A DNA stretch of 64,000 nt, taken from the NCBI GenBank assembly GCA_016182605.1, contig JACPGE010000004.1, forward strand, positions 1,402 to 65,401. The letters are read 5' to 3'. Below the pieces are notes generated by a model that saw only the letters and a list, made by a program, of their open reading frames with translations, searched no databases and was not told where the DNA came from. Numbering within the stretch: position 1 is the first letter of the stretch; every line of letters starts with the position of its first letter. This DNA comes from Candidatus Hydrogenedentota bacterium (GTDB lineage: Bacteria > Hydrogenedentota > Hydrogenedentia > Hydrogenedentales > JAEUWI01). Below, one piece after another: positions 39,478 to 63,173 of the stretch. The translations under genes and the position numbers were made by a program.

Positions 39478-41574
<2,097 letters not shown>

Positions 41575-43912: not shown

Positions 43913-44551
43913 GTGCCGGTGCCCTGCGCGAAAGGGAGTGTCGATCCATTGAAAACCAATTATGTCCTCGTCGATTTTGAGAATGTGCAGCCCACGGATC
44001 TGGGCCTGCTCAAGAACGGTCCCTTCCGGGTCAAGCTTTTCCTCGGGCCCAACCAGGCCAAGGTCCCCGTGGCAATTGCCGCCGCCTTGCAGGCCTTGGG
44101 CGGCAACGCAGAATACATTATCCTCGAAAAGTCGGGCGCCAACGCCCTCGACTTTCACATCGCGTACTATATCGGCGCGCTCTCGGCGGAAGAGCCCACA
44201 GCCGTCTACAACATCATTTCCCGGGACACCGGATTCGACCCGTTGATCAAGCATCTCAAACACAAGGCGATCGCCGTGCACCGCTCGGCCCGCATCGCGG
44301 ACATGCCCTGTTTCAAGCGTGACGCGCCCGAAGCGAACGGGAGCCAACTGGACAAGACGATAGAGTTCCTGGTGGGCCGCAAAGGGGCCGTGCCCAAGAC
44401 CCAGAAGTCGCTCTTGCGCTCCCTGCACGCCCACTTCAAGAAGGAAATGAACGAGGAGCAACTGACGTTTCTGTTCGATACCTTGTGCGAGCGCGGCATC
44501 GTGACCGTCGACGGCGCCAAAGTCTCCTATGCCTTGCCCCAGGAAGACTGA
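43913..44551 (+). CDS. Hypothetical protein with a PIN/NYN-like N-terminal region and a wHTH-like C-terminal region
   Basis: YVLVDFENVQP resembles the first strand of NYN/LabA-type domains. No further support. Confidence 0.3.
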   Translation: MPVPCAKGSVDPLKTNYVLVDFENVQPTDLGLLKNGPFRVKLFLGPNQAKVPVAIAAALQALGGNAEYIILEKSGANALDFHIAYYIGALSAEEPTAVYNIISRDTGFDPLIKHLKHKAIAVHRSARIADMPCFKRDAPEANGSQLDKTIEFLVGRKGAVPKTQKSLLRSLHAHFKKEMNEEQLTFLFDTLCERGIVTVDGAKVSYALPQED

Positions 44552-44626: not shown

Positions 44627-47600
44627 TCACTTCTGACCCGGGACACGCACGGGGATGCCGCCGAGTTCGAGCACGTCACTGGTGCGTTCTCCTTCCATTT
44701 CAGGGACATCGAACTCGAACTCGGCATGGGCGATGACCGGGAGTTCCCAGGCCTGCGTGCCTTCCACCCGTTCAAACAGTTCGACATAGAGGGTGTAGTG
44801 TCCGGCCACGACATCGTCAATGCGGAATCCCGCGGCTTCATCCAGATAGAAGCCATATAGATAGCGTTCGAGTTCACGCTTCTTGCCTGCGTCGCTCTTC
44901 GGCCAGTCCTTGATCCATTTTTCCCTGGCCGCTTGAATCCAGGAGTCGAAATCCTTGGGCCAGGGCATCTCCGCGCCCTTGCTGAGGTTCCCGCGGGAGC
45001 ACTGTTTCAGCACAACCCTCGCTTTCAGATCCGGGGGCAGGAGCATCGTTCCCGTGACGGGCCGCCCCGAACCGCCGAGTTGCGCTGTGAGCGTCTCGCC
45101 CGCCACGGGTAGTACCCCGATGGAAATGGCCCGAATACGGGAGTCGCCGGGACTGTCTGGGTGGATGCGCTCCAGACGCGACACTTCCGGCAACACGCGA
45201 TCGAAGGTGAAACGCCCCTCGGCATTGGAGACGGTCTCGCTGGAGAAGTTGTATTGCGGCTCGCCTCTCACGCCGGAGCGCATGGGGAAAAGCGTAATGA
45301 TGGCATTCGAAGCCGGCGCTTCGGCGATGCGGACCACACCCTCGACGCGGGCCCAGGGAGTCAGGACAACGTCGGCATGCTCTTCAAAGTACTTGGCATC
45401 CGCCAGGGCGAATCCGGAATCATGGGTAGCGATGAAGAGGTAGGGGGACTCGCGTCCATCGAAAGCGTAGGCGCCGTCCGCATTCGTCACCTTGATTCTG
45501 TCCTTGTCCCGGACATCGAGCGCGCCATTGCGGATGGCGATATGGTATTCGGGAAGGGCGAGGGCATAGGCGGCGCCTGCTGCCTGGGCGCCATCGGGCG
45601 TGAGCAGCACGCCCTGGATACGCGGCGCGCGCTTGAGCCGGAAGTCACAAATCGTGCTGGCCTCCCGCGGATGCAACTCGGCCGAACGGGCAGTGAGATA
45701 GCCTTCCGCCTCGATGGTAATGCTAAACCCCGTATCGAATTCGCGCATGTTCATCACGTACACGCCCCTGTTGAGCGTGGCCACACCATCAATCTGCATG
45801 TTGCCGCTGTCATCCGCGGCTCGCACACGGAACGATTCCACGGGCTCGCCTGTGATGCCATCGATCACGGTGCCCGTAACGATAACGTTGTCGTTCAAGA
45901 CGATGATGTGTTCTTCATCGGTTGCCTCCAGCGATTTGGTCAGGCCGCGGCGGCCCTCCTTCTGGAAGCTGAGTTCGACGGGGCCTTTCGGCGCCTCATC
46001 CCAGGTGAAGCGCCCTTGCGCGTCTGTAGAAGTCCGCAACTTTATGGCCGTGGCGTCGGGCGTAATGAGCGGCTCCCGATCGATGGTTGCCACGGTGACG
46101 CCGGCCAGGGGCTGATTGCGCTGATCGATGACCCGGCCACGGAGGAGTCGGCCCACGGGCAGCACGATGGTGACTGGAGCCATATCCTGTGCCGCCTGCA
46201 CCTTGGTAATCACAGCGACATATCCCGGCGCATCGGCCTTGAGATCGTAGGGCTGCGCAACACAATGATCGAAGCGGAAGAGGCCATCCTTGCCGGTGGT
46301 CGCTTTGCGATTGGTGGCCGTCAGCACATTCTCCCGCTGCCGCGCCTCCAACTGAGAAACGACCGCACCGGGAACCGGCTGGCCGGCCTCGTCGGCCACC
46401 AGGCCGGTCAATTCAATGCCCTTGTCGATGACGAGCGTCTGCGTTCCATTGATCAGGCGCGCGGTGGAAAGCGATCCCGCGGCATAGGGCGTGTCCGCGT
46501 AGCCGGGATGGCGGAGCACGAGCGACAACTGCGCGAGATCGCTTGGACCATGCACGCACTCCCAGACGCCGCTCTCGCCTGTCACTTCCGTGTGTTCGAG
46601 CAGCCCGCCCTTCTTGAAACTGCGCTTGCCCGGAATGGGCAGCGCGACCTGCACCCCGGCCACGGCCGCGCCTTGGGCATTGGTGACGCTCCCGCCGATC
46701 TTGAGGGATTTCTCCAGTTCTATGACCAGCTTGTCCGAGGGATTGAGGATCCAATCCACTGTTTTGGAAAGGTAACCATCGGCATGGACCGTGAGGGCCG
46801 CCTTGTCGCCGGTGCGTTTGCTGTAGAAGGTCACCGCGCCGCGGGCGTCGGTCCAATAGTAGCGGGTCTGCACGTTCAATTCGGGGGCGTACTGAAAATC
46901 GACGAAAGCGCCCGGCACGGGGCTCCGATCGCGGGCGCTCAACACCTCAAAGGAATGGGCGGCGCCAGCCGCGGGATAGTTGATTTGAAGGCCATTGCCG
47001 GATTGCAGGGCCGTCACGGACTCCGGATCGATCGTTTCCGGAAGCCGGATCGTGTTCAAGCCCGACAGGGCGCGCAGCACATCCAGGCCTTCCGCGCTTA
47101 CCTGGGTGTTAAAGAGATACAATTCACGCAGGCCCTCCAGGCCGCGCAGGTAGGCCAGGCCCGCATCGCCCACCGAGGTGACCTCCAGATTCAGCCCTTG
47201 CAGTTGATGCAGGTTTTGCAGCGCCTGCAAGCCCGCGTCCGTGATGAAGGTGCCTTCCAGCCCCAGAATGCGCATATTGGGCATGTTGGCCACATACTGC
47301 AGGCCCTCATCCCCGAAGTGGCCCATCCAGAGATCGAGATACTCCAGTTCCGTCATGTTCTGCAAGTATTGCATGCTCTCGTCCGACACGCCGGTCAGAT
47401 TCAGATCCAGATAGCGCAGGTTGTTGAGCCCGGCCAAATACTGCATGCCGCCGTCGGTCACCTGCGTGCGCCCCACGGAAAGGTACTCCAGACTGCTCAT
47501 GTCCGCGACGTACTCCAGCGCGGAATCGGAGATTTCGGTGTTTTCAAAGGTCAGTTCGCGCAAGGCCATGCCCTGCAAATGCTGTAGATCGCCGTCCCGT

Positions 47601-49003
47601 ATCTCCGTCTGCCGGAAGTCTATCGATTGAATGTCGTCCGGGCCCAGATAATCCAGGGGGGAGAGATCGGTCACTGCGTTGTTGTCCAGCACCAGCCGCA
47701 CCTGCTGGCCTTCCGGAATGACCACGTTGCCCTGGGCCGGCGCGAGCGGCGTCCAGCCTTCATTCAGGCCCTCGCCCCAGGGAATTTGATAGCCGGTATC
47801 GCCCCAGGGGCGGATAAGGATTTGCCCCATGGACCAGGTCTCGGGCAGGACGATGGTCCGTTCCGGTGGCGGAGATTGCTGGTTTTGCGCGTAGGCCCGC
47901 CCCAGTTCCGTCCAGCCGAGCCCGAGCGTGAACAAGAAGACGAGCACGAGGCCAATGAAGCCGCTGAGGGGGCGGGCTTCGCCTGGCGCCTTCACCCCCG
48001 CAAGCCGGCGAATCCGCATGAGCAGATCGCCCCCCGTGGCGGCCAGAGCAAATCGGGAAGACCGCTGACGCAACTCTTCGATACGGGTCAAGGCGCGGGC
48101 GTAGCCCAGCCGGTCGCCGCACACCATCACCGCGAGATCGTCGCAACAGAGTTCGCGCTCCATGCGGATGCGCCGTGAAACCCACCAGACCACGGGATGA
48201 TAGAAGAGGAGGGTCTCGATCAGTACCTGGACCAGATTGAACATGTAGTCGTGGCGGCGGATATGGGCGAACTCGTGGGCGAGTATCGCGGTCAATTCTT
48301 CGCGGGAGAGTCCGGTCAGCATGGATGCCGGGACAAGAATCACCGGTTTCATCCACCCGATGGTCGCGGGCGCCTGTGCTATCCCGGATTTCAGCAGGGC
48401 AACCGATCGCGCAACGCCCAGTCTTGCCTGGAGTTCCGCCAGAAGGGGCGCCCAATCTTGAGAAATGGGTTCGACCAAGGTACGGCGAAGACGCTGCACC
48501 AGCAGCCAACCCGCCACGTTGTGCAGCGAAATCAGAAATACGCCGCAGAACCAGAACAGCAGCAACCACGGCACGACGGGCGCCGACTTCCGCTTGCAGA
48601 GGTTTAGAAGCCCCTGAAACGTCATGGGAGCTTCGGGACGAACTGCCGGAGCAGTAGCAGGGGAGAAGTGCGCGACGGGCGCCTCAATATGGTTTAGCGG
48701 CGAAATGGGGGGCGTGCTAGCGTACTTCGGCTGTGATTGGAACTGCGTGGCCACAGGTATCGCGCTATCGGACGCGACGGACTCCAGAGTCAGGCAACAT
48801 GCCGTGATCACCGGCGCCAATGCCATGGCAAGCAAAGCGCCGTAGCACACGAGGTAGCGCGATTGCGGAGAACGGTTTCGCAACGCCGTGAGCGCCAGCA
48901 TCAGGAGAAGGGATAAACCCGCGCCTTGCCAGACGAAGTGCATCAGACTCCAGCCTATGCGCTGGGCGAGGGGAAACTCAGCAAGCATCTCAAGCGTAAT
49001 CAT
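44627..49003 (-). CDS. Giant BlaR1/MecR1-family (M56 peptidase) membrane sensor fused to leucine-rich repeats and multiple CarbopepD_reg-like beta-sandwich domains
   Basis: N-terminal TM region with HExxH (ILAHEFAHIRRHDY). LRR array (LxxLxLxxTxVxDxGLxxL, about 8 units). Repeated carboxypeptidase-regulatory-like domains toward the C-terminus. Confidence 0.75.
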   Translation of the reverse strand: MITLEMLAEFPLAQRIGWSLMHFVWQGAGLSLLLMLALTALRNRSPQSRYLVCYGALLAMALAPVITACCLTLESVASDSAIPVATQFQSQPKYASTPPISPLNHIEAPVAHFSPATAPAVRPEAPMTFQGLLNLCKRKSAPVVPWLLLFWFCGVFLISLHNVAGWLLVQRLRRTLVEPISQDWAPLLAELQARLGVARSVALLKSGIAQAPATIGWMKPVILVPASMLTGLSREELTAILAHEFAHIRRHDYMFNLVQVLIETLLFYHPVVWWVSRRIRMERELCCDDLAVMVCGDRLGYARALTRIEELRQRSSRFALAATGGDLLMRIRRLAGVKAPGEARPLSGFIGLVLVFLFTLGLGWTELGRAYAQNQQSPPPERTIVLPETWSMGQILIRPWGDTGYQIPWGEGLNEGWTPLAPAQGNVVIPEGQQVRLVLDNNAVTDLSPLDYLGPDDIQSIDFRQTEIRDGDLQHLQGMALRELTFENTEISDSALEYVADMSSLEYLSVGRTQVTDGGMQYLAGLNNLRYLDLNLTGVSDESMQYLQNMTELEYLDLWMGHFGDEGLQYVANMPNMRILGLEGTFITDAGLQALQNLHQLQGLNLEVTSVGDAGLAYLRGLEGLRELYLFNTQVSAEGLDVLRALSGLNTIRLPETIDPESVTALQSGNGLQINYPAAGAAHSFEVLSARDRSPVPGAFVDFQYAPELNVQTRYYWTDARGAVTFYSKRTGDKAALTVHADGYLSKTVDWILNPSDKLVIELEKSLKIGGSVTNAQGAAVAGVQVALPIPGKRSFKKGGLLEHTEVTGESGVWECVHGPSDLAQLSLVLRHPGYADTPYAAGSLSTARLINGTQTLVIDKGIELTGLVADEAGQPVPGAVVSQLEARQRENVLTATNRKATTGKDGLFRFDHCVAQPYDLKADAPGYVAVITKVQAAQDMAPVTIVLPVGRLLRGRVIDQRNQPLAGVTVATIDREPLITPDATAIKLRTSTDAQGRFTWDEAPKGPVELSFQKEGRRGLTKSLEATDEEHIIVLNDNVIVTGTVIDGITGEPVESFRVRAADDSGNMQIDGVATLNRGVYVMNMREFDTGFSITIEAEGYLTARSAELHPREASTICDFRLKRAPRIQGVLLTPDGAQAAGAAYALALPEYHIAIRNGALDVRDKDRIKVTNADGAYAFDGRESPYLFIATHDSGFALADAKYFEEHADVVLTPWARVEGVVRIAEAPASNAIITLFPMRSGVRGEPQYNFSSETVSNAEGRFTFDRVLPEVSRLERIHPDSPGDSRIRAISIGVLPVAGETLTAQLGGSGRPVTGTMLLPPDLKARVVLKQCSRGNLSKGAEMPWPKDFDSWIQAAREKWIKDWPKSDAGKKRELERYLYGFYLDEAAGFRIDDVVAGHYTLYVELFERVEGTQAWELPVIAHAEFEFDVPEMEGERTSDVLELGGIPVRVPGQK

Positions 49004-49007
49004 GAGA

Positions 49008-49391
49008 TTACTCCTTCATCTCTTTGAGGAGTTGATTGATTTCTTCCAGTTCTTCCGGCGTGGCCGATTTTGTGGAGAGCGCCTGCATGATCAGCTTGCT
49101 TGCGGACCCTCCGAAGGCACGCTGGATCAAATCCCCCACGAGTTGCCGCTGCATCTTTTCCTCTTCCAGGGCAACCCGGTAGGTGTGCGGCCGCCGTGCA
49201 TCGTCCCGCAGCAACAGCCCCTTCTCATGCATGATCTGCATCAGCTTAAGCGCCGTCGTATAGCCTGTGGGGCGCTCCGCGCTCAACGCCTCCTGCACGT
49301 CCCGCACGGTCGATGGGCCCCGCTCCCAGAGCACATTGAGTATGGCCAGTTCGCCGACGGTAGGGCGGGGCGGGGTCTTCGGGGGCATGAT
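49008..49391 (-). CDS. BlaI/MecI/CopY-family transcriptional repressor
   Basis: Winged helix LAILNVLWERGPSTVRDVQEAL...TALKLMQIMHEKGLL. Lies 4 nt upstream of the BlaR1-like gene. Start was set at MPPKT. Confidence 0.8.
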   Translation of the reverse strand: MMPPKTPPRPTVGELAILNVLWERGPSTVRDVQEALSAERPTGYTTALKLMQIMHEKGLLLRDDARRPHTYRVALEEEKMQRQLVGDLIQRAFGGSASKLIMQALSTKSATPEELEEINQLLKEMKE

Positions 49392-49556
49392 CGGGCTCCT
49401 TTGGTGGTCGTCTTGGACGCTGAAGCCGAGTATATACGAAGACCTTCGTTTTGTCAACGAAGAATTTCGTACTCGCCCACACCCGGAGGAATGCGGGGAT
49501 AGCCCGCACATTTCACCACTTGGAGCCTCAACGCGCGAGCGGACATTGGGAGCACG

Positions 49557-49865
49557 ATGAAATGTGCTCAGCGCGAAGCCGGTGCTGGAGCAGCCCAGGG
49601 GGGCGGCCAGGTTCCCGAGGGCCTCGCCGGCATGCCCCTGATTGCGATCCGGCTTGAGGGGGACCGTGTGCTTGCGCAGTCAACGGACGGCAAGTACACG
49701 CGTATGGATGCCGACGGCACGTTGAGCGAGATGACCGAGGCGCCCATGATCAAGCAAGACCCCGCCGTCGCCGCGTTTGGCGATGCAGCGCGGGCCGTGG
49801 CGAGCGACAAACTCCTCATGACCGCGACAATAAAAGGCCGTTTGCTCCACTTTCTGTCCCATTGA
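49557..49865 (+). pseudogene. Gene fragment paralogous to residues about 65-135 of the downstream gene at 54397..56478
   Basis: About 205 nt (49600..49803) are roughly 88% identical in DNA to 54592..54798. Homology is lost on both sides. Confidence 0.55.
49600..49803. repeat. About 205-bp direct repeat, left copy (its partner is 54592..54798)
   Basis: Direct nucleotide comparison: ccaggttcccgagggcctcgccggcatgcccctg... in both copies. Confidence 0.8.
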
Positions 49866-49983
49866 ATACTAGCTCGTGTCGCTATACTATAGTATCTGCA
49901 TTATCGCGATGGAGCATGAGGCGCAATAAGCGCGGCCTCATGCAAGGCCCGCCGTGGGCGTATCGGGTGTGCGCATTCTATAG

Positions 49984-52900
49984 GTGGCAATGACTCAACA
50001 GCCGGACACACTACATGCATTAATCGGGCAATGGCGCGCGAAACACAACAAGCGCGCGATGGGAGGCATATGGGCGCTCTCCGGTTTTTCCTTTCAAATC
50101 GCGATCTTCTTGGTTCATTTTTTTGATACCGTGGGGCGGGAAAACGAAGACCCCCAACAACTCCCCGAATTCGAGCAACTTTCCGATCTCCTCTGCCCAC
50201 AGGACAGACGTTATCTCCTGGTGCAAGTCAAGCGCACGCTGAACAGGACCAGACTCAAAGAGGCGTTGAAAGAGTTCTACACCATCCTGGCGCTCTCCCG
50301 GGAAGAAACCCCCACCCTTACGAGCCAGCTACGTTTCCAAGTGGCCTGTAAGTACCGCCCGAGCCCGAGTTTGACCCCTTCCGACATCACGATGGAGGAA
50401 GTCGTGGACAATGGTGACCCTGAAACTTGGCAATTGCTTATCAGGGCCTTTGATGAAGAAAATCCCATCATTGAAGAGCCGGATCCCCTGGACAAGCTGT
50501 ACGCCGTTCTGTGGACTCATGGGATTAAGAACAGGGCCGGACTCATTGAGCATTGTGCCGGCCGGTTGCTGGAAAGCTTTGGCAACCCAGGCCCCAACGT
50601 TAGGCATAGCCTGCTGCGCGATCTTGAAAGCCTGTTTCATGACGCTCCCAGACGGGAAGGATGGACCAGCGAATTCAAACTTCTCTTGGGGAACGACGTA
50701 GCCCTCGATCCCAGTCATGAGGGCTCCCTGGAGGTCCTGACGGGGCAGTTACCCCGGCTCGAACACCTCCGGAAGGGCATGTTTCGCGAGCGCAAGGCGC
50801 TATTCAGCAATCTCTGGGAGCAGTTTAACTCATGGCAGACGCAACTCGAAGAGCAAGACCTCGGAGACGAGACCCCCATCTTTTGGATCAGCGGCCGCTC
50901 CGGCGAAGGCAAGTCTGTCCTGCTACTCCAACTTGTCGCGGAATGTATCCGCAAGCATGGCGATATCCCCCTCCTTCACCTGAAATCAGGGGAAGACCTG
51001 CCTCTCTTCCTGGACCACGCACCTAAACGCACCAGTATGAACGACCAAGTATTCGGGCGCTACTTCGCCGTAATTGACGATATCTACGACCTGCGCAATC
51101 GCGATGACTGGGCGGATCGTATTCGCCGGGCGCGTGCTTTAGAGATTCCCCCGGTCGCCATCATCACCTGCGGGCCTACGGAACAGCGGGAACAGTTCGA
51201 AAACAGTCTGAAAGATGAATTCAGGGTCGTTCATTTTGAGGTCCCCCTCCTGGACCAATCTGAAATGGAGGATTTTATTGAATGGTACGAGAATCGGACC
51301 GGCAAGGTGTGTGAGCGGTCGGTATTCTCGGAGCAAAACCCGCTCCTGGTCTTGTTTATGTTCGAATTGGCCCGCGGCGAAAAGATTTCGGCCTTTGCCA
51401 AGCGCATTAAGAGGCGCCTGGAAGCCATGCAAATATTTGAGGCGGCCCGTGCCATTGCGGCCACGTGGGCCCTTTACATCGACGCCCCCATTGCATTGCT
51501 GGAAGACCAGGAAAAACGCGACGCCCTGGACCGCCTCTGCAAGGACGACCAGCTTCATTTCCGCATATCCTATTCAGAGGATGGAAGCACGGAGGAAGGC
51601 GTCCGTTTCGCCCATGCCCACATAGCCTGGTTGCTCTACACAGAATGGGCAGAACTACCTCCAACGCCCTTCGCAAAATCGTGGGCTCGCGACCTGGACC
51701 GGAGCTTGGGCCTTTGGGAATCCCAAGGAAACTACGCTGGCGCCAGCATCTTGTTGCACCGGGCTTTCCGCGAAACACGGCTCGCAAACGGTCTTTACGT
51801 GGAGCTGAATACCGATCATTGCCAGTTGCTCCAGGAATTGTACCGGCTGCATTGTCAGAGGAATGCTAATCAGCCCTTGCAAACCCTGATGCCGCGTTGG
51901 CTGGAAATGTTGTGCAAGTCCCGTGGACTGGTACTCAAACCCGACCCAGTGCTCGCCACGCTCAAAGCGATGGAAGACGAATCCGCAGTCAGTTCCGTAC
52001 AGGGCTACACCGTTGGCTGGCTTTGGCGTCTAACTGCTCTGCGCCCCCCAACCGAACAGGGCCGCATAAGAAATATGGTCCAAAGATTTCTGGACCAATT
52101 CCCGGAAGCTCCAGGCTCAGGGACCGTAGTAGGCCAGATCTCTAAATCGAACCAATCCGATCAGCAAATTCACCAATGGGTATTGAGCTGGATCCAAGAA
52201 AACCCATTGAACCCACAGACCGTTCTTACGCTCTCGCCCATGCTCGCATCTCATTCAGGAAATCATGAATTAATAGATGTAGCCAAGACTTGGCTATCCA
52301 AATACCCTGAACTACCTCAAGCACATTGGCTGATAGCAAGGCTGGTGGCGTGCAATCCAGGGGACGAGATCGTCAAGAATATTGCCACAGATTGGTTGAA
52401 GGGATTCCCCGAACATCCGCAGGCATATCAAGTAATTACTGCCCTTGTACGCGCGCGGCCTGGTGAAAAAAATGTGGTTGATATCGCGAAAAAGTGGCTG
52501 AACGACTTCCCCAAACATCTTCATGCATACAACTTGATCGCGGCACTCGTGGCGGCGAACCAAGTAAACGAGGACATCATTGGAATCGCCACGGAATGGC
52601 TACAGAACTTCCCCGATCATCCACAGGCATACATCTTGATCGCGACACTCGTGGCGGCGAACCAAGTAAACGAGGACATCATTGGAATTGCCACGCAATG
52701 GCTACAAGACTTCCCCGATCATCCACAGGGATACCAAGTGGTGGCGGCGCTCGTGGCGGCAAATCAGGGGGACGAGGACATCATTGGAATTGCCACACAA
52801 TGGCTAAAGGACTTCCCCGATCATCCACAGGCATACATCTTGATCGCGACACTCGTGGCGGCGAACCAAGTAAACGAGGACATCATTGGAATCGCCACGG

Positions 52901-53853
52901 AATGGCTACAGAACTTCCCCGATCATCCACAGGGATACCAAGTGGTGGCGGCGCTCGTGGCGGCAAATCAGGGGGACGAGGGCATCAATAGAATTGCCAC
53001 ACAATGGCTAAAGGACTTCCCTGAACAGCCACAGGCATACCACGTAGTAGCGGCGCTCGTGGCGGCGAACCAGGGAGACGAAAGCACCAAAATATTCGCC
53101 ACCGAGTGGCTGGACGAAAACTCCAATCATCCGCAGATCCATAAAGTGATCGTGACCTTGATCTCAGCGTGGCCCGATGATCCAATGGTCGAAAAGACCG
53201 CCACCGAATGGTTGTCCAACAACGAAAACCATGCGGGATATGTCGAAATGCTCTCCACAATCATCGCTCGAAGCGTTGGCGCCGAGAAGTGGCTGCGCTG
53301 CGGTGAAGCCTATCTCGCTCGGCCCAATTGCCGAAACCCAGAGGGAATCATTTCCGTCCTGGTAACGGCCGGAAAAGCCAATGCAGACGCCGTTGACCGC
53401 GCCCTTGACTACTTCGACGCTCCTTCAACACCGAAAAAATCCGCCAGCTTCGTCAGAATCCAGCTATCGAAGGCGTTGGCCAATAATCTAGAGAACACGG
53501 TAGCCTACCTCTACGGCGTACTGAATGAAGAACGCAATCGCTTCATATGCGATACTCTGGCATATGGATTGGCCCAGAATCCAGAGGGATTCGCAGATTT
53601 CATCGAGGTCCATGCGCCCGACCTCATGTCCGAGTATGAGCAACGCATACTCTGCAAACTGATTCTCCTTAAGCAAAGTACAGACGCATTCGATGAATGG
53701 GTTGCCACCTGGCTCGTACGAAACTACCGTCGCCCAGGCTATGGTGGCGTCCTGCAAGCCATCCGCAATCGTCCGGCCCTGTGGGGGCGGCTGATCGAAC
53801 TCAACGCCCTCAATTCCGAAATCATTTGGGACTACGAACACCCGCCGATCTGA
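49984..53853 (+). CDS. Large P-loop NTPase with an unassigned about 290-aa N-terminal domain and a C-terminal array of 34-aa helical repeats (STAND-like architecture; candidate defence or signalling protein)
   Basis: Walker A WISGRSGEGKSVLLLQL (about aa 303). Walker B FAVIDDIYD (about aa 361). The C-terminus has about 10 tandem 34-aa units (IIGIATEWLQNFPDHPQAYILIATLVAANQVNED). The N-terminal domain (MGGIWALSGFSFQIAIF...DLLCPQDRRYLLVQVKRT) matches no family I can name. Confidence 0.6.
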   Translation: MAMTQQPDTLHALIGQWRAKHNKRAMGGIWALSGFSFQIAIFLVHFFDTVGRENEDPQQLPEFEQLSDLLCPQDRRYLLVQVKRTLNRTRLKEALKEFYTILALSREETPTLTSQLRFQVACKYRPSPSLTPSDITMEEVVDNGDPETWQLLIRAFDEENPIIEEPDPLDKLYAVLWTHGIKNRAGLIEHCAGRLLESFGNPGPNVRHSLLRDLESLFHDAPRREGWTSEFKLLLGNDVALDPSHEGSLEVLTGQLPRLEHLRKGMFRERKALFSNLWEQFNSWQTQLEEQDLGDETPIFWISGRSGEGKSVLLLQLVAECIRKHGDIPLLHLKSGEDLPLFLDHAPKRTSMNDQVFGRYFAVIDDIYDLRNRDDWADRIRRARALEIPPVAIITCGPTEQREQFENSLKDEFRVVHFEVPLLDQSEMEDFIEWYENRTGKVCERSVFSEQNPLLVLFMFELARGEKISAFAKRIKRRLEAMQIFEAARAIAATWALYIDAPIALLEDQEKRDALDRLCKDDQLHFRISYSEDGSTEEGVRFAHAHIAWLLYTEWAELPPTPFAKSWARDLDRSLGLWESQGNYAGASILLHRAFRETRLANGLYVELNTDHCQLLQELYRLHCQRNANQPLQTLMPRWLEMLCKSRGLVLKPDPVLATLKAMEDESAVSSVQGYTVGWLWRLTALRPPTEQGRIRNMVQRFLDQFPEAPGSGTVVGQISKSNQSDQQIHQWVLSWIQENPLNPQTVLTLSPMLASHSGNHELIDVAKTWLSKYPELPQAHWLIARLVACNPGDEIVKNIATDWLKGFPEHPQAYQVITALVRARPGEKNVVDIAKKWLNDFPKHLHAYNLIAALVAANQVNEDIIGIATEWLQNFPDHPQAYILIATLVAANQVNEDIIGIATQWLQDFPDHPQGYQVVAALVAANQGDEDIIGIATQWLKDFPDHPQAYILIATLVAANQVNEDIIGIATEWLQNFPDHPQGYQVVAALVAANQGDEGINRIATQWLKDFPEQPQAYHVVAALVAANQGDESTKIFATEWLDENSNHPQIHKVIVTLISAWPDDPMVEKTATEWLSNNENHAGYVEMLSTIIARSVGAEKWLRCGEAYLARPNCRNPEGIISVLVTAGKANADAVDRALDYFDAPSTPKKSASFVRIQLSKALANNLENTVAYLYGVLNEERNRFICDTLAYGLAQNPEGFADFIEVHAPDLMSEYEQRILCKLILLKQSTDAFDEWVATWLVRNYRRPGYGGVLQAIRNRPALWGRLIELNALNSEIIWDYEHPPI
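52265..53280. repeat. Tandem 102-bp (34-aa) intragenic repeats. Central copies are near-identical in DNA.
   Basis: For example, the unit starting at 52570 recurs exactly at 52876 (306 bp = 3 units away). The repetition creates artefactual ORFs in alternate frames. Confidence 0.85.
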
Positions 53854-54396
53854 CGGATTCTCTTTTAAGCCAACCCGCGCAATTCACCGTTGCCTGCCGC
53901 CACGGCAAAAAGAAGTAGGCCCAAATCATTGGACACCGAAATCGGATTGTTAGATGAATCCGCTCTGAAATGGCGCTAACTTTTCGTGCGGTATTGAGTT
54001 CGGATGCAGCTTTCAAGATTTTCTACTTGTTTGATAGGGCGCAGGCGGGTACTTCGACGCGGAATGCCTACGCTCATCGAGCGAAGGCCTACTTTAACGG
54101 CGTGCCTGATAGTAGCACACCGAGCGGCGTGATTGGGTGAGGCGGCAATAGTTGGCGCCATTCAATCCGCTCTGGGTTTCGACTGCGGCTTTGCCGCGCC
54201 TTCACCGTTCGCGGATCTTATTCTCAATTCGAATCGACAGGTCACCAGCCCATCGACCCCATGCGACCATCGTCTGAGCGCGCGGGAAGATCCCGGAAAT
54301 GGAGACAAAATCATGATAGACATGCGGGCGGCGCTTGTATTGTTTTTCGAGTTTTTGCTACGGTGTTCACTCCCGGAATCCAAAAGGAACAAGCCC

Positions 54397-56478
54397 ATGC
54401 TGCCATTCGCCTGTCGGCTTCTCACCATCACACTGCTCATCACTGCCACCGCCGCTGCGGAAGATCTCGGCGAACTTCCGTTTCCGTTGTGGAACGTTGT
54501 GCCGCTTCTGAATGACGTGGACGATCCCCGCGCGGCCTTCCGCCGCCCCGAAGGGTCGCTGCCCATCGTCGTGCCGCCGTTTGTGGAGCATGTGCGCGTC
54601 CAGGTTCCCGAGGGCCTCGCCGGCATGCCCCTGGTTGCGATCCGGCTGGAGGGAGATAGCGTGGTGGCGCAATCGAAGGAGCGCAACTATACGCGCATGG
54701 ATGCCGACAGCACGCTAAGCGAGATGACCGAGGCGCCCATGATCAAGCAGGACCCCGCCGTCGCCGCGTTTGGCGATGCGGCGCGGGCCGTGGCGAACGT
54801 GGGGGGGAGCATGTGGCTTGCGACGGCCACCGGGCTCTACGTGCGGGCGGCCGGCGCAAGGGACTTTGCGCGCTTCGAGACCTACGGGGTGGGCGGGCCG
54901 CTCTCGACGGACATCCGCGATCTCGCGGTCGATTCGAAAGGCACGCTCTGGATCGCGACGTCTCTTGGACTCAATGCGCTGGACAGCAGCGGCGCCTGGC
55001 GCGCCATTCGCGGTCGCGACGGCCTGCCCCAGGAAGACCTGACTGCGATCGCGATCGACGGCGAGGATCGGCTCTGGATCGGCTCCACCGCGGGACTCAT
55101 TCTCTATGTTCCGAACGCCACGGACCGCCAGTGGTACTACCGCGCCGGCGAACGCTACGTGCCCAACGACCTGATTCACGATGTGGCGGTGAGCGCGGAC
55201 GGCCACAGGGTCTACACCGCCACGGAGGGTGGGCTTGGCCGGCTCGACCTGATTGGCACGACCCTGTTGGAACGCGCGGAGAGGATCGAGAAGCGGGTGA
55301 ACGAACGGCACCGCCGCTTCGGGCTGGTGGCGGCGTGCACGCTTGACGATCCCTGGAACTCCACCGCGCACACGATAGGCGACAACGACAACGACGGTCT
55401 GTGGACTTCGTACCATGTGGCGGCCATGGCACTGGCCTATGCGGTAACCCGGGACGCAGCCGCGAAGGCTTCGGCCAAGGAGAGCATGGACGCCCTGTAT
55501 ATGCTGCAAGACGCCTCGGGGATTCCCGGCCTGGTGGCGCGCAGTGTGGTCACCCTGGAAGAGGGCAAGAGCAAAGACAAGCAATGGCGCCTCACCCCGG
55601 ACGGGACCAAGTATTGGAAGAGCGACACCTCCTCGGATGAGATCGACGGCCACTACATGGCGTTTTATACGTACTGGGAACACATTGCGAAGCAGGACCC
55701 GGAAGAAGCGGCGATCTGCGTTGAACACGTGCGCAATCTGACCGACTACATCATCAAGAACGATTACCAGCTCATCGACTGGGACGGCAAGCGCACCCGG
55801 TGGGGCTTCTGGTCGCCCGAATTGCTCAACGATCAGCCGCAACATTTCACCGAAACGGGGCTGAACAGCCTGCAAATGCTGTCCTTCCTCAAGACAGCGC
55901 ACTACATCACCGGGGATGCCAAGTACCAGAAGCACTACATGAAATTGATCAAGGAACACCACTACCTCGCCAACGTACTGCTGGAGAAGAAGGTTTACCC
56001 CGATATGGACAACCACTCCGACAACCAGCTTGCCTACGTTGCGTGGTACCCCATACTCCAGGCGGAGCAGGACCCGGAGATCCGCGAGGCGCTCCACGCG
56101 GCGGTGCGGCGGCACTACAAGTGCCTTTCTCTCGATCGGACGGCCTTCTTCTACTACGTGACGGCCACCATCGATCCCGACTACGTGGACCTCGAGGCTG
56201 CCACCCATGAGCTGACCCTATTCCCGACGGATCGCCGTCAATGGGCCTACAAGAACAGTCATCGCGCCGACGTGGTGTTCAATCCGCGCGTCGACCGATT
56301 CGGCAAGCGCCAACTCATGACGGTGTTGCCCCTGGATGAGCGGGGCATCGACAAGTGGAACAGCAACGTCTATCTTCCCGACGAAGGGGGCAGTGGCAAC
56401 CACGAGGACGACGGCGCCGCGTATCTGTTGCCCTACTGGATGGGGCGCTACCACGGCTTCATCAAAGAAGCGGAATAG
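54397..56478 (+). CDS. Secreted protein with an N-terminal beta-propeller-like (two-component-regulator-propeller-like) region and a C-terminal (alpha/alpha)6-glycosidase-like region
   Basis: Signal peptide MLPFACRLLTITLLITATAAA. Reg_prop-like repeats (GTLWIATSLGLNALD, DRLWIGSTAGLILY). The C-terminal glycosidase assignment is weak. Confidence 0.4.
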   Translation: MLPFACRLLTITLLITATAAAEDLGELPFPLWNVVPLLNDVDDPRAAFRRPEGSLPIVVPPFVEHVRVQVPEGLAGMPLVAIRLEGDSVVAQSKERNYTRMDADSTLSEMTEAPMIKQDPAVAAFGDAARAVANVGGSMWLATATGLYVRAAGARDFARFETYGVGGPLSTDIRDLAVDSKGTLWIATSLGLNALDSSGAWRAIRGRDGLPQEDLTAIAIDGEDRLWIGSTAGLILYVPNATDRQWYYRAGERYVPNDLIHDVAVSADGHRVYTATEGGLGRLDLIGTTLLERAERIEKRVNERHRRFGLVAACTLDDPWNSTAHTIGDNDNDGLWTSYHVAAMALAYAVTRDAAAKASAKESMDALYMLQDASGIPGLVARSVVTLEEGKSKDKQWRLTPDGTKYWKSDTSSDEIDGHYMAFYTYWEHIAKQDPEEAAICVEHVRNLTDYIIKNDYQLIDWDGKRTRWGFWSPELLNDQPQHFTETGLNSLQMLSFLKTAHYITGDAKYQKHYMKLIKEHHYLANVLLEKKVYPDMDNHSDNQLAYVAWYPILQAEQDPEIREALHAAVRRHYKCLSLDRTAFFYYVTATIDPDYVDLEAATHELTLFPTDRRQWAYKNSHRADVVFNPRVDRFGKRQLMTVLPLDERGIDKWNSNVYLPDEGGSGNHEDDGAAYLLPYWMGRYHGFIKEAE
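54592..54798. repeat. About 205-bp direct repeat, right copy, inside the 5' coding region of 54397..56478
   Basis: See the left copy at 49600..49803. Confidence 0.8.
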
Positions 56479-56673
56479 CGGGCGGCGCGACGGCGGCAGA
56501 CTGAACGCAAATTCACACACCCGTGCCTGAAATGCCCCCCAATTGACGGCGGTTGCCTTTCCGGCCCCGTGCTGCTATCGTGCAGCCTCGGCAGTGCGGA
56601 CACAATATTTGGGCTAGTGCGGATGGCGCCCGATACAGGCGCCGTCCGCGACTTCAGGCAGGAGCATCGCAGC

Positions 56674-58089
56674 ATGGCGCATTCCAATGGGCAGGAATCG
56701 GACACTACGCCGCCACAGCGCCCGAGTCCCGAACGGGAAAGCTGGATGGACTGGCTCGCGCGCATCTCGGAGCGCCTGGTGCCGGATGCGTTCACCACCG
56801 CCATCGTACTCATGGTCATCCTCGCCGCGCTGGCCCTGTTCCTGGGCAATACGGTCACCGAGACGGTCGACGCCTACTACCGCGGCCTGTGGATGCTCCT
56901 CGCCTTCACCATGCAAATGACCCTCATGCTCACCCTGAGTCTGGTCCTCGCGGAGACGCGCCCCTTTAAGTTCAGCGTCGTCTATCTGTCCCGCATTCCC
57001 AAGAGCGCCACGCAGGTGGTCATCGGTGTGGTGCTGTGCACCGCCGTTCTCGCTTACAGCAACTGGGCCCTTTCCATTGCCCTCGGGCCGATGGTCGCCA
57101 TCCACTTTTGCAAGCAGGCCGAACGCAAAGGCATCCCGGTCGACTTCAACTGGATCATGGCCGTCATCGCGGGCGCGGGTTCCATCTGGCAGTTCGGCAT
57201 GTCCTCCACGGCGCCCCTGCAAATGACCGCCCCAGACAACTTCCTCGCGAAAACCACCGGCGCCATGCCGCTCTCCACGACCATCTGGAGCCCCGCCGCC
57301 CTGACCATGGTGATTTCATTCATCATCGTGACGGCCGTGGTTGGCGTGCTCTTCATGCCGAAGAAGGTGAAGCCCATCTCCCATTTCCAGGAAGCCGACA
57401 AGCTCGCCGAGGCCGCGATAACGGCCGATTACGTGCCACCCGCGACGATCGATCACGACATTTCCTTTGCGCAAAAGATGGAGCGCACCTCCATCACCCT
57501 CATCCCCATGTGGATTGCCCTGGGCGCCTGGATCTTCTACCACTTCGTGACGATGAAGGCCAGCCTCGACATCAACTCCATGATCACGATCCTGCTTCTG
57601 GCGTGCCTGCTGCTTCACCGCACCGTGGGGCGCTTCACCGAAGCCCTGCAACGCGTCATCGTCTCCACCTGGCCCGTCGTCGTCCTCTATCACCTCTACG
57701 CGGGCGTTGCGGGGCTCATCCAGTTCACCGACGTGGGCAATTACCTCGCCACCATGGTCGAACCCATTGCCACCCCCATGACCCTGCCACTGCTCACCGC
57801 GATCATCAGCACGGTCGTGGCGATCTTCATCCCCACCAGTGGCGGTCAGTGGCAGATTCAGGGCTTCGTGACCGTGAGCGCGGCCGAGGCCGCCGGTATT
57901 ACGGCCCAACGCGGCCTCCTCGCCCTCAGCGTGGGGGATCACATGGGGAATTTGATCTCGCCCTTTTGGACGGTCGTCGGCGCCGGCATCGCCCGTGTCG
58001 ATTTCCGCAAGCTCTTCGGCTACCGGCTGATCTTCGCGGCGATTTGGTTCGTCATGGGGGTGATCATCTTTACCTTCCTGCCCTGCTGA
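56674..58089 (+). CDS. atoE: Short-chain fatty acid transporter, AtoE family
   Basis: Recalled from memory, it aligns along its whole length with E. coli AtoE (LLAFTMQMTLML, IPTSGGQWQIQGFV, about 10 TM helices). Confidence 0.8.
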   Translation: MAHSNGQESDTTPPQRPSPERESWMDWLARISERLVPDAFTTAIVLMVILAALALFLGNTVTETVDAYYRGLWMLLAFTMQMTLMLTLSLVLAETRPFKFSVVYLSRIPKSATQVVIGVVLCTAVLAYSNWALSIALGPMVAIHFCKQAERKGIPVDFNWIMAVIAGAGSIWQFGMSSTAPLQMTAPDNFLAKTTGAMPLSTTIWSPAALTMVISFIIVTAVVGVLFMPKKVKPISHFQEADKLAEAAITADYVPPATIDHDISFAQKMERTSITLIPMWIALGAWIFYHFVTMKASLDINSMITILLLACLLLHRTVGRFTEALQRVIVSTWPVVVLYHLYAGVAGLIQFTDVGNYLATMVEPIATPMTLPLLTAIISTVVAIFIPTSGGQWQIQGFVTVSAAEAAGITAQRGLLALSVGDHMGNLISPFWTVVGAGIARVDFRKLFGYRLIFAAIWFVMGVIIFTFLPC

Positions 58090-58425
58090 GCAAATCGGCA
58101 CACGACACCCGCCAACGCACCGTCTGAACACGAAGGTGTGCCCCCGGCCTCAATTAAAAAGCCCCGGAGATCGACCAGAACTGGTCTGTCCATCTCCAAG
58201 CGCCGAGGGGGGGGGGATTAAACACGGCCTTGTCGCGGCGGTCCAATCCACATCCGAAGCTGAATCCAATCGAAGCATACCCGATGGCCCATATTTTGTC
58301 TATTTTATGGTGGGTCCAACAAAGCGCAAGCCACTTCGGATTTTTCCGCTTTTCATGCTACGCTATGGGTTTACGCTCTATGGCGTTCCCGCTGTACCCC
58401 AGATCCCCTGGAAGGAGAATTCGCT

Positions 58426-59226
58426 ATGACCGCGCGCACCCGTTCCCTTCGACTTGCCACCGCACTCTTGCCCGCAATCCTGCTTCTGTTTCTGCCGATT
58501 ACGGCAGGCGCCGCGGAAGGGGAGCAATGGATCAGCCTCTTTAATGGCAAGGACCTGGAGGGCTGGCACGTCAAGATCCGCTACCACGATTTCGACGACA
58601 ATTTTGGCAACACCTTCCGGGTGGAAGATGGGGTGATGAAGGTGGGCTACGAGGCCTACGGCAAGTTCAACGAGACCTTTGGGCACATCTACTACAAAGA
58701 GCCCTTTTCCAACTACCGCTTCCGGGTAGAGTACCGCTTCACGGGCGAGCAGGCGCCGGGTGGCCCGGGCTGGGCAACGCGCAACAGCGGCATCATGCTG
58801 CATTGCCAGGATCCCAAGACCATCGAAAAGGACCAGGACTTTCCGGTGTCGATTGAAGTGCAGTTCCTCGGCGGGGATGGCAAGAAAGAGCGCACGACGG
58901 GCAACCTCTGCACACCGGGCACCAACGTGGTGATGAAGGACAAGCTCATCACCCAGCACTGCACGAACTCCACGTCCAAGACCTTTCACGGCGACCAGTG
59001 GGTAACGGCGGAAGTGGAGGTGCACAACAGCAAGAGCATCAAGCACTTCATCAACGGCGAACTGGTGCTGGAGTATGAACTTCCCCAGCTCGACGAAAAG
59101 GACGCCTACGGCAAGAAGCTGATCAAGGACGGCGAACTGCTCCTCGGCGGCGGCTATATTTCGCTTCAGTCCGAGAGCCACCCGGTAGAGTTCCGCAGGA
59201 TCGAGATACTGCCGCTGGACGAATAG
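58426..59226 (+). CDS. Secreted DUF1080 (3-keto-disaccharide hydrolase-like) protein
   Basis: Signal peptide. WISLFNGKDLEGWHV...GIMLHCQ...ISLQSESHPVEFRRIEI is the canonical DUF1080 pattern. Confidence 0.8.
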   Translation: MTARTRSLRLATALLPAILLLFLPITAGAAEGEQWISLFNGKDLEGWHVKIRYHDFDDNFGNTFRVEDGVMKVGYEAYGKFNETFGHIYYKEPFSNYRFRVEYRFTGEQAPGGPGWATRNSGIMLHCQDPKTIEKDQDFPVSIEVQFLGGDGKKERTTGNLCTPGTNVVMKDKLITQHCTNSTSKTFHGDQWVTAEVEVHNSKSIKHFINGELVLEYELPQLDEKDAYGKKLIKDGELLLGGGYISLQSESHPVEFRRIEILPLDE

Positions 59227-59661
59227 CCAGGGGCATTGCCGGCATCCGTGCAATACCATGATTCCCGGGAGATGTGCCCAATGGGTTATCTCCCGGTTCT
59301 TATTTTTGAAAATACTGCCGTCAAGGCCCCCCATGGCCGGCGGCATGATTCCAGCCGGGGAAGCCCAGCCTGGTGAGTTGCCAGGGGGGCGTTTCGAAAT
59401 AGGCCCGCATCGGGAGACGTCGAAGCCACTGGAGCTTCTTCCCCGTAAGAGCCCATACGAAGGGCTCCAGCAGCGGCCCGGCGCAATAGAAGAAGCCGGC
59501 AATCGGAAAACACCCTGCAATTGCGAAAAACAGGCGCCCGTTTTGCAGAGGGGAACACCGCTCGTGACCTGCACGTGCCGCCCAGGCTCTCCCCACTCAA
59601 TCCAGATCCGTTCTGAAACAGCATGCTCGTAGACTAACTTAAGCCCTGTCAAAAAAATATC

Positions 59662-59691
59662 TTGACAGCGCAGAAATGTTCTTGATATAAA
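59662..59691 (+). promoter_or_regulatory. Near-consensus sigma70 promoter (TTGACA-N18-TATAAA) about 280 nt upstream of the C11 peptidase gene
   Basis: cTTGACAgcgcagaaatgttcttgaTATAAAag sits in an AT-rich intergenic region. An AAGGAG RBS at 59956 precedes the ATG at 59971. Confidence 0.4.
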
Positions 59692-59970
59692 AGTGGAAGA
59701 CTAGATGGGGCTCCAAGCCGATCCATCGAACTGCAAGAAGAGGTATGCGCGAGGTTCCGGCAGTGTCTCTCCGCGGCGCGCGCGGAGCTTATTCAACTAT
59801 GGAGGGGCAACTTTGGCTTCGAGCACACCCACGCACACGTAGCGGCATTTTTCCCGCTGGCGCCGGGATCCGAATCTGTCCAAGTTCATGACGGAAGAGT
59901 TGTGTCTGTTGGTGTCTTCCAAAACGTTTCCATTATTGACAAAACACCCGAAAAGTAAGGAGAAAAGGCC

Positions 59971-61218: not shown

Positions 61219-61286
61219 TTGGGAAGCGCTTCGATTGAAGCGCGGATGGGCTGTGTGCCGAAATCACATTCAAGGAGTGGGCTGCG

Positions 61287-63074: not shown

Positions 63075-63117
63075 CGGCCACGCCAAGGTGTGAACGATCA
63101 ACCGGCTTCACGAAAAA

Positions 63118-63151
63118 AGGCGCATAGCGGCATGGGCTGCCGCTATGCGCC
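63118..63151. terminator. Bidirectional intrinsic-terminator-like hairpin between convergent genes
   Basis: ggcgcatagcggc-atgggct-gccgctatgcgcc is a perfect 13-bp stem. Confidence 0.5.
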
Positions 63152-63173
63152 TCTGTGCAACACTTCGGGCGGT

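Follow-up and report, generated by a model that had tools for sequence, protein, structure and literature searches.

Direct repeats of a beta-propeller gene enclose a foreign STAND NTPase gene in a Candidatus Hydrogenedentota genome and are seemingly found in two-copy and single-copy states

We analysed a 64-kb stretch of Candidatus Hydrogenedentota DNA, hereafter the window. Two direct repeats, an isolated gene fragment on the left and the matching internal segment of an intact gene (gene X) on the right, enclose a STAND-type NTPase gene. A Logan contig from a sister metagenome, L165 (SRR12113418), is the exact predicted product of recombination between the two repeat copies. We favour, with modest confidence, the reading that the left copy originated as part of another allele or paralog of gene X and was displaced, that general recombination can remove a 4993-bp unit at this site, and that L165 represents the single-copy state. 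The locus looks like an ordinary kind of genome scar, seemingly caught in both states. Its features are listed in Table 1.

Table 1. Features of the repeat locus and its surroundings (window coordinates)
Feature	Position	Strand	Description
BlaR1-like M56 peptidase/sensor	44627..49003	-	LRR and CarboxypepD_reg domains
BlaI-type repressor	49008..49388	-	126 aa; first gene of the blaI-blaR1-like operon, which adjoins the left copy
blaI sigma-70 promoter, near-consensus	49429..49471	-	TTGACA-17-TATACT at 49457-49429
Contig stop site	49503..49533	.	Logan contigs of two runs (L161/L163, L164) end at the same base, 49532
ORF with left copy	49557..49865	+	102 aa; NCBI HYV27_00800, MBI2421335.1, 'hypothetical'
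Left copy	49596..49806	+	In-frame isolated fragment, homologous to gene X codons ~65-134; GC3 0.83, host-like
Exact run, 34 nt	49607..49640	+	Equals 54600-54633; L165 crossover falls within
Diverged middle	49653..49724	+	18/72 bases differ; pS 0.65 (synonymous sites near saturation); dN/dS 0.09
Exact run, 32 nt	49725..49756	+	Equals 54718-54749; source of the k=31 graph branch where L162 begins (54720)
Segment separating copies	49807..54588	+	4782 nt; with one repeat copy forms the 4993-bp unit missing from L165
STAND-type P-loop NTPase	49990..53853	+	HYV27_00805; C-terminal TPR-like tandem repeats of 34 aa (102 nt)
Non-coding stretch 5' of gene X	53854..54396	+	Presumed promoter location; part of removable unit
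Gene X	54397..56478	+	693 aa, HYV27_00810; GC3 0.82
Exact 10-mer pair GGAGCATGTG	54585..54594 and 54806-54815	+	Brackets right copy
Right copy	54589..54799	+	Within intact gene X; first propeller blade and linker; hypervariable, length-variable part of the family

MAFFT alignment and a repeat search defined the two copies as a single ungapped direct repeat of 211 nt at an offset of 4993, with 26 mismatches (87.7% identity). The pair of ~88% identical repeats reported in a preliminary description of this DNA was recovered, also by BLASTN and TBLASTN, and each copy encodes, in frame, the peptide quoted there. When gene X was queried against the whole window, only one extra copy was found (BLASTN E 4e-60, TBLASTN E 1e-28), a similarity far above chance, and neither program detected a third copy of the 211-nt segment within the 64 kb. 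All four flank combinations scored no higher than shuffled controls in Smith-Waterman alignments, so the left copy stands alone and has sharp ends, as had been proposed. Weak homology reaching into the flanks was ruled out by the same comparison and by short-word BLAST of 49533-49606 and 49807-49989. The left copy had also been called a 5' fragment of gene X. It is instead internal (codons ~65/70-134) and lacks the start codon, the signal peptide and the conserved N-terminal motif. After the two longest exact runs between the copies, the third spans 29 nt (49758-49786). The two GGAGCATGTG 10-mers around the right copy lie in different reading frames, and ~0.005 such pairs are expected by chance.

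Gene X encodes a signal peptide, a conserved N-terminal motif, a BT4663-like beta-propeller and a helical C-terminal domain. Its assignment to the Reg_prop beta-propellers of the BT4663-like periplasmic sensor type follows from a PF07494 match and a phmmer match to 4a2l (E 3e-15). The AlphaFold model (pLDDT 82, pTM 0.85) gave 4a2l and 4a2m as its best Foldseek matches. The 5' end is complete, with the signal peptide and N-terminal motif typical of the family, and its base composition is host-like. Identity to homologs is 14% in the copied module compared to 50-70% in the other parts of the protein, and the first ~20 codons of the copied segment align to the family consensus VPx9AVx4G. Homologs were found at 80 loci in GTDB representative genomes (best 62-67% protein identity), and the nearest relative of gene X in a search of 5.8 billion proteins was 66% identical. 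At these 80 loci we found no synteny and no adjacent BlaI, NTPase or SCFA transporter. Self-BLAST revealed an upstream duplicate of the N-terminal region at none of them, and a second paralog lies within 10 kb at just 3. The JGI metagenomes yielded no match to the fragment peptide and a best match of 45% to BlaR1. Across the GTDB representatives, the 5.8-billion-protein set and the JGI metagenomes, no close relative was found in which to look for an empty site.

The differences between the copies are not evenly distributed. They form a mosaic, with 1/45 and 3/81 mismatches in the arms (together 4/126) compared to 18/72 in the middle (Fisher p = 5e-6). The earlier figure of ~88% holds as an average but not as an even identity, the arms being 97-98% and the core 75% identical. 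The copies differ by 13 synonymous and 9 non-synonymous changes (dN/dS 0.19); neutrality was rejected (p = 6e-4) and dN/dS of at least 0.5 was rejected at p ~0.05. These differences look like the divergence of two functional coding sequences, a pattern consistent with the gene-fragment relic that had been considered as one alternative. A new duplication, one copy of which then decayed neutrally, is at odds with the same dN/dS and neutrality test. Judged by the mosaic differences, the coding-type divergence and the lack of a nearby integrase, transposase or reverse transcriptase, the repeat pair is not a fresh target-site duplication.

Between the copies lie the NTPase/TPR gene and the presumed promoter and signal-peptide end of gene X itself. 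The NTPase gene has a GC3 of 0.63, compared to 0.73-0.86 in the 40 other coding ORFs that passed the composition filter, and is the sole compositional outlier in the 64 kb. Its closest homologs are 38-42% identical and scattered over phyla. By its base composition the gene is foreign, and it was probably acquired horizontally. The suggestion that the left copy marks a rearrangement breakpoint is supported, with this foreign gene adjoining it. The NTPase matches nSTAND5 (PF25199) at 23.6-24.1 bits, below the gathering cut-off of 34, and a precomputed PF25199 hit exists for many of its homologs at 30-42% identity. Its comparison with the PADLOC defence models gave no convincing match, and no effector domain was recognised in its N-terminal 280 residues. 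A weak PADLOC match to RT_UG20 covers profile positions 367-462 of 511 and NTPase residues 940-1038; it sits on the TPR-like part of the NTPase and is read as matching a non-polymerase part of the profile. Pfam scans of the main ORFs of 33-64 kb, and of the NTPase in three parts, detected no integrase, transposase or reverse transcriptase. A search for a mobile or RNA element found no tRNA, inverted ends, Rfam family or significant fold.

On its left side, the fragment adjoins the blaI operon. The paired palindromes TACGAAGACCTTCGT / ACGAAGAATTTCGTA (49435-49471) overlap the blaI promoter and are likely the BlaI operator. The ORF that contains the left copy has GGGAG 5 nt upstream of its ATG. 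In the search of 5.8 billion proteins its own ORF was the sole match to the fragment peptide, in a search that did not list gene X itself and whose sensitivity for short queries is doubtful. HYV27_00800 is better treated as a gene fragment than as a hypothetical protein.

The presumed second state of the locus is represented by L165, which equals window 48755-49606 joined to 54600-55047 with 0 differences over 1300 nt. At the diagnostic sites it reads LLLL and then 22 R, so that its core is purely R-type. Excision by the repeats, proposed in the preliminary description, agrees with this exact match to the recombination product. Inversion, proposed alongside it, does not fit, because the repeats are direct and recombination between them deletes or integrates DNA. 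In L165 the ATG at 49557 is in frame with the gene X body. The refuting outcome named in the preliminary description, that this ORF belongs to an intact full-length paralog, is partly borne out in L165, where the ORF runs on into the full gene X body. A contig from a further run, L162 (SRR12113422), is identical to window 54720-63645. Its start lies exactly 30 nt (k-1) ahead of the point where the shared 32-mer ends, which indicates that both copies are present in the SRR12113422 reads.

L165 probably represents a real genotype, although it comes from a low-coverage k=31 assembly, where popped bubbles and clipped tips can lead a path through a repeat. In the main alternative, the fragment would be no more than a dead relic of a rearrangement, in a population consisting entirely of two-copy genomes, and L165 would be a chimeric path through the k=31 graph in which the middle bubble was popped and the two side branches were clipped. 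Logan assembles at k=31, discards k-mers seen once and applies SPAdes-like simplification, and L164 and L165 are merely 1.3-1.5 kb long, which indicates low coverage. A lone propeller blade would, moreover, be unable to fold. We simulated a two-copy-only population at matching coverage and obtained an L165-like unbranched path in 0.05-15% of cases. The upper value required lenient tip clipping, whereas strict clipping gave 0.05-0.8%. An artefact is thus possible, at most ~15% by simulation, and is not the default. Against the dead-relic alternative, the higher-coverage run broke at the repeat under the same pipeline, and two runs, SRR12113421 and SRR12113422, share an additional branch at 49532. 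This stop lies 64 nt left of the repeat, and the window has no repeated 31-mer there; its reproducibility suggests real structural heterogeneity. We consider the dead-relic alternative unlikely, though it is a serious competitor.

A second alternative is that the MAG contig was mis-threaded. The chromosome would then be single-copy like L165, and the 4993-bp unit would be a separate circle, or belong to another locus, spliced in through the shared arms. The unit starts and ends in these arms and forms a cycle in the de Bruijn graph, so that the k=31 graph is the same whether the unit is integrated or excised as a circle. However, the MAG contig links the L-type flank (49598-49606) to the L-type middle (49641 onward) over just 34 nt, a link that would be resolved by any assembler k or read longer than ~37 nt, and the window sequence contains no Ns. 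A circle would also carry only a truncated gene X. We give this explanation little credence.

According to the displaced-fragment reading, the left copy would be a piece of a second version of gene X, probably a separate allele or paralog in origin, stranded next to the blaI promoter when rearrangements imported or reshuffled the STAND-NTPase gene. The cell's general homologous recombination would then use the identical 34-nt and 32-nt runs, without a dedicated recombinase. A crossover would loop out the 4993-bp unit with the NTPase gene, the gene X promoter and the first 69 codons of gene X; the reverse reaction would be integration in Campbell fashion. RecA-type recombination would be the maker of L165. 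In the single-copy product, the ATG at 49557 would be retained, and 18 unrelated codons would lead in frame into codon 70 and the rest of gene X. This fused product would have no signal peptide and would adjoin the BlaI-controlled divergent promoter. The single-copy gene is missing the signal peptide and the N-terminal motif that all homologs share, and may therefore be a dead product and not a state that is maintained.

All origin scenarios that we built require at least two events, which was counted against the displaced-fragment reading. Also counted against it were the coincidence of the retained piece with the hypervariable module, the GGAGCATGTG pair that brackets the right copy and the stop of two runs at 49532. 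The suggestion in the preliminary description of an insertion at the 5' end of the gene, accompanied by a long duplication, disagrees with the intact gene X on the right and the missing 5' end of the left copy.

The two states might also form a maintained, recombinase-free switch, with the population toggling between them through repeat recombination. In one form, gene X would be secreted and under its own promoter, and the STAND NTPase would be present. In the other, the NTPase would be missing and a leaderless gene X would be expressed from the divergent promoter controlled by BlaI/BlaR1. As crossover sites, the near-identical arms would be conserved. We regard such a switch as highly improbable. 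A related proposal, that the left copy is retained as a silent donor cassette from which segmental gene conversion would bring new sequence into the hypervariable first blade of the expressed gene X, is very hard to credit. The fragment does have an arm, variable core and arm layout without promoter-proximal or distal gene parts; it comprises exactly the hypervariable module of the family, and its core differences resemble those of functional coding sequence. There is, however, a single cassette in the 64 kb, an upstream duplicate is absent from all 80 homolog loci, and no mosaic gene X variants were seen, the L165 core being plain R-type.

Classical insertion of an NTPase element into gene X, with the repeats as a long target duplication or att sites, would account for direct repeats around a region of lower G+C, but is refuted for practical purposes: inverted ends, a tRNA and, among the scanned ORFs of 33-64 kb, a recombinase gene are all absent, the 211-nt repeats are 88% identical and differ like functional coding sequences, gene X is uninterrupted, and its 5' end is missing from the left copy.

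Other element types were also considered and rejected. A MITE/RPE-like in-frame element with a 10-bp target duplication is at odds with the absence of inverted ends and of a significant fold, and with the family-typical first ~20 codons. An RNA element or tRNA target was rejected in view of the lack of an Rfam match and of a tRNA. A diversity-generating retroelement was rejected since the mismatches are not confined to adenines (every substitution class is present, with A in the left copy at 4/26 and in the right copy at 7/26), no RT domain was detected in the scanned ORFs of 33-64 kb, and the repeat is near the 5' rather than the 3' end of gene X.

The locus provides an example, from a groundwater MAG of an uncultured phylum, of a lone foreign conflict-type gene without a mobility gene. 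A stray gene fragment would supply the homology by which the foreign gene is gained or lost as a unit. If L165 is true, a STAND NTPase turns over by presence and absence inside one natural population, and the side effect on the neighbouring secreted protein is loss of its signal peptide.

Campbell-type integration and excision rely on general homologous recombination at direct repeats. In E. coli, the minimal efficient processing segment for such recombination is reportedly ~23-27 bp, a value ascribed to Shen & Huang (1986). We took direct repeats with exact runs of at least ~25-30 bp as the mark of this type, and the present copies share exact runs of 34, 32 and 29 nt in direct orientation. 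As in the Campbell type, a single hybrid repeat remains in the predicted product and exactly one period (4993 bp) is lost, as in L165. Unlike in Campbell systems, no circular form was observed, and low recombination rates are expected because the repeats are short and just 88% identical overall.

Some elements bring a substitute gene end, such as e14 and phage 21 in icd and SXT in prfC. In these elements, as here, the inserted DNA is flanked by a duplicated stretch of the gene whose copies differ mostly at synonymous positions, and the inserted side provides a working gene end. There, the duplications reach the gene terminus and adjoin an integrase and a short att core. Here, in contrast, the left copy stops short of the start codon, there is no integrase, the gene X 5' end is host-like, and homology begins at codon 65-70 rather than at the start or stop codon. 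The conserved arms (97-98%) around a variable core (75%) in a hypervariable region recall the pilS/pilE, vls and msp2 cassettes. Those systems have several promoterless partial cassettes and mosaic variants of the expression site in the population; one cassette was seen within the 64 kb, and the sole variant contig, L165, has a pure R-type core.

The nSTAND families of Kaur, Burroughs, Iyer and Aravind are bacterial STAND NTPases with TPR sensor arms (PMC7159879, PMC8195603). Like nSTAND/Avs-type proteins, the cargo has a P-loop STAND-like core, a weak nSTAND5 match and long TPR-like repeats, and its patchy phyletic spread and atypical composition are common in conflict-system genes. Unlike nSTAND5 proper, it has a Pfam score of 24 against a 34-bit cut-off and no recognisable N-terminal effector.

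At Rhs, CdiA and T6SS effector loci, displaced or orphan pieces of genes are attributed to homologous recombination and homology-facilitated illegitimate recombination (PMC5361080, with reference to Koskiniemi 2014, Poole 2011 and de Vries & Wackernagel 2002). Those orphans lie downstream and are alternative toxic C-terminal tips with immunity genes, whereas the present fragment lies upstream, comprises an internal N-terminal blade without an alternative module, and accompanies an unrelated NTPase cargo. In both cases, a partial copy in direct orientation was left beside an intact gene by acquisition of foreign DNA, and the shared stretch permits RecA-type deletion or swapping of the intervening DNA without a dedicated recombinase.

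In a contig of a Candidatus Hydrogenedentes MAG, alignment and repeat finding revealed a single ungapped direct repeat linking gene X, which encodes a secreted beta-propeller protein, to a short upstream ORF (49596-49806 versus 54589-54799; 211 nt, offset 4993). The two copies differ by 26 mismatches and are 87.7% identical, in agreement with the preliminary description, which had placed a repeat of ~88% at 49600..49803 and 54592..54798. Each copy is in frame and encodes the peptide quoted there. When gene X was compared with the whole window, which contains no Ns, only one extra copy was found (BLASTN E 4e-60, TBLASTN E 1e-28). Local alignments of every flank pairing scored no higher than shuffled sequence, so the homology breaks off sharply at both ends and the left copy is indeed isolated, as had been proposed. 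An exact 10-mer, GGAGCATGTG, flanks the right copy on both sides (54585-54594 and 54806-54815) and falls in a different frame at each site; this pair was spotted post hoc, and chance would yield ~0.005 of its kind. A G7 run (54801-54807) lies just ahead of the second GGAGCATGTG. A perfect 10-nt inverted repeat, GCACATTTCA / TGAAATGTGC, occupies 49506-49515 and 49558-49567, the latter arm sharing bases with the ATG of the upstream ORF.

Features of the repeat locus
Feature	Position	Strand	Remarks
BlaR1-like protein	44627-49003	-	M56 peptidase with LRR and CarboxypepD_reg domains; blaI-blaR1-like operon, left of the repeat
BlaI	49008-49388	-	blaI-blaR1-like operon
blaI promoter	49457-49429	-	near-consensus sigma-70, TTGACA-17-TATACT
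Paired palindromes TACGAAGACCTTCGT and ACGAAGAATTTCGTA	49435-49471		overlap the blaI promoter
ORF with left copy	49557-49865		NCBI: hypothetical protein HYV27_00800
NTPase, 1287 aa	49990-53853	+	weak STAND P-loop match; C-terminal 34-residue TPR-like repeats
Non-coding DNA, 543 nt			between NTPase and gene X
Gene X	54397-56478	+	HYV27_00810

Gene X is a member of a large Reg_prop propeller family. Its N-terminus carries a signal peptide and the LPFPLxNVVPPLxDxDDP...LPIVVPPFEEHVR motif common to homologs, indicating that the gene is intact. The repeat spans residues ~70-134, and the copied piece coincides with a hypervariable module of the family: in a 36-sequence alignment this region ranges from 16 to 87 residues and has a mean identity to gene X of 14%, compared to 50-70% elsewhere. 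The first ~20 residues of the copied piece still follow the family consensus, which marks the piece as native rather than inserted. The AlphaFold model of gene X (pLDDT 82, pTM 0.85) has four strands at 79-110, which we read as one propeller blade, and the periplasmic sensor domain of Bacteroides BT4663 has a similar propeller. Since a single blade is unlikely to fold alone, the upstream ORF (102 aa) probably encodes no functional protein. Many gene X homologs (P0027, P0029, P0036, P0042 and others) are ~1000 aa long with BNR/sialidase domains (PF13088, PF13859), and some bear the name 'predicted neuraminidase' in one source. These features suggest a family role in glycan binding or degradation. 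At one distant homolog locus, L070, 80 nt inside the gene (3427-3506) are repeated with 100% identity just past the gene end (4672-4751); this may reflect assembly or a comparable fragment. Only the fragment's own ORF came back from a protein search with the 66-aa peptide, gene X (86% identical) being missed, so negatives from such short queries need caution.

The differences between the copies are unevenly distributed, with one in the arm 49608-49652, three in the arm 49725-49805 and 18 within the 72 nt of the middle (49653-49724; Fisher p = 5e-6). Nei-Gojobori counting gave 13 synonymous and 9 non-synonymous differences (dN/dS 0.19), and for the middle alone a pS of 0.65, near saturation, and a dN/dS of 0.09. 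Neutral evolution of the pair was rejected (p = 6e-4), and a dN/dS of at least 0.5, the expectation for one copy drifting freely since an in-place duplication, was marginally rejected (p ~0.05). This pattern suggests that most divergence accrued while both sequences belonged to working genes. The two sequences may be either alleles of different lineages or paralogs, and the arms are near-identical either because they are recent or because recombination has kept them so. A DGR template/variable repeat pair was ruled out, as every substitution class is present.

The NTPase gene between the copies has a third-position G+C of 0.63 compared to 0.73-0.86 in the 40 other coding ORFs passing the composition filter, and is the sole large coding region outside that range. 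Values typical of the host were obtained for gene X (0.82), its 5' end and the two copies of the repeat (0.83-0.84). The nSTAND5 score of the NTPase is 24 bits (cut-off 34); its best homologs are just 38-42% identical, and those with a named source come from unrelated phyla. Its TPR-like repeats are encoded by ~7-9 tandem units of 102 nt (52274-53235), which are mutually 82-90% identical and have many exact 31-mers in common. Units so similar inside a single gene suggest that their turnover has been recent, as happens in sensor arms of the NLR type. The ORFs scanned in 33-64 kb included no integrase, transposase or reverse transcriptase, and no tRNA or Rfam family was found. Palindromes TACGAAGACCTTCGT and ACGAAGAATTTCGTA plausibly form a BlaI operator pair facing the fragment ORF. 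A PIN7-domain gene (43913-44551) lies upstream of blaR1, and downstream of the locus clostripain-family (Peptidase_C11) and caspase-domain (Peptidase_C14) genes sit side by side (59971-63074); all three domains are frequent in conflict systems and here occur close to the STAND NTPase. Elsewhere, a 47-nt direct repeat (38836-38882 and 39403-39449; 91% identical, 567 nt apart) with an internal TTCCCA...TGGGAA hairpin sits between ORF 37616-38761 and the dnaK ORF (39478-41532, - strand), possibly as a small extragenic repeat element. The longest homopolymer in the window, G10 (58207-58216), lies between SCFA transporter and 3-keto-disaccharide hydrolase genes.

Logan contigs of three runs carrying this population were found via exact-protein look-ups. 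Logan uses k=31, drops singleton k-mers, simplifies the graph with Minia3 and represents each 31-mer once per accession (PMC12424806). Contig L162 (SRR12113422) is 100% identical to window 54720-63645 and starts exactly 30 nt before the end of a 32-nt run common to both copies. This is the signature of a repeat-caused graph branch, so both copies are present among the SRR12113422 reads. Contig L165 (SRR12113418, 1300 nt) corresponds base-for-base to 48755-49606 joined to 54600-55047. Of the diagnostic sites flanking the 34-nt identical run, all 4 on the left carry left-type bases and all 22 on the right carry right-type bases, exactly as expected if the repeats had crossed over inside 49607-49640. 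L165 is without the 4993-bp unit, and its ATG at 49557 opens a reading frame that continues into gene X at codon 70. Since k=31 is shorter than the repeat arms, this path could also be an assembly artefact if its two side branches had been clipped. In simulations of a population with only the two-copy form, at coverages yielding contigs about as short as these, the two side branches both came to a dead end after a short distance in 0.05-0.8% of cases under a strict tip limit and in 3-15% under a lenient one. Given these rates, we consider a real island-free genotype the somewhat likelier source of L165. The earlier proposal that the repeats could mediate excision or inversion thus gains support for excision, an artefact being possible, whereas inversion is excluded by their direct orientation. 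In two runs the contigs (L161/L163 and L164) terminate at an identical position, base 49532, which precedes the left end of the repeat by 64 nt; no 31-mer at 49503-49533 recurs within the window, and L165, from a third run, continues straight through. The shared stop suggests either another variant or a sequence repeated somewhere else in the community.

The repeats would act as substrates of general homologous recombination. With lengths of 34, 32 and 29 nt, the exact identical runs are above the minimal processing segment of E. coli, roughly 25 nt, and so should be usable. A crossover would remove the NTPase gene together with the promoter and signal-peptide end of gene X, and the reverse crossover would integrate the same unit; an element-encoded enzyme would not be needed, and none is present among the ORFs scanned. 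That gene X of the single-copy form is without the family's conserved N-terminus argues that this form may be derived. Every origin scenario that we built for the fragment takes at least two events: a tandem duplication and then a deletion; homology-facilitated illegitimate recombination, after which the displaced 5' end was lost; or a 5'-truncated gene receiving, by Campbell integration, a circle that stems from a diverged lineage. Judged by the substitution pattern, scenarios in which the copies come from different lineages or paralogs are favoured.

A role of the fragment as a silent cassette has little support, as the window holds one cassette only and 0 of 80 homolog loci have one. Transposon or integrase insertion, a substitute-gene-end element of the e14/icd type and a MITE were each rejected because a defining feature, when tested for, was absent. 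The repeat finding is real and is another example of a known phenomenon, of modest significance unless read data reveal a maintained two-state locus. Its closest known counterparts are the displaced gene fragments, and their recombination, at Rhs, CdiA and T6SS effector loci (PMC5361080), and textbook Campbell-type recombination between direct repeats.
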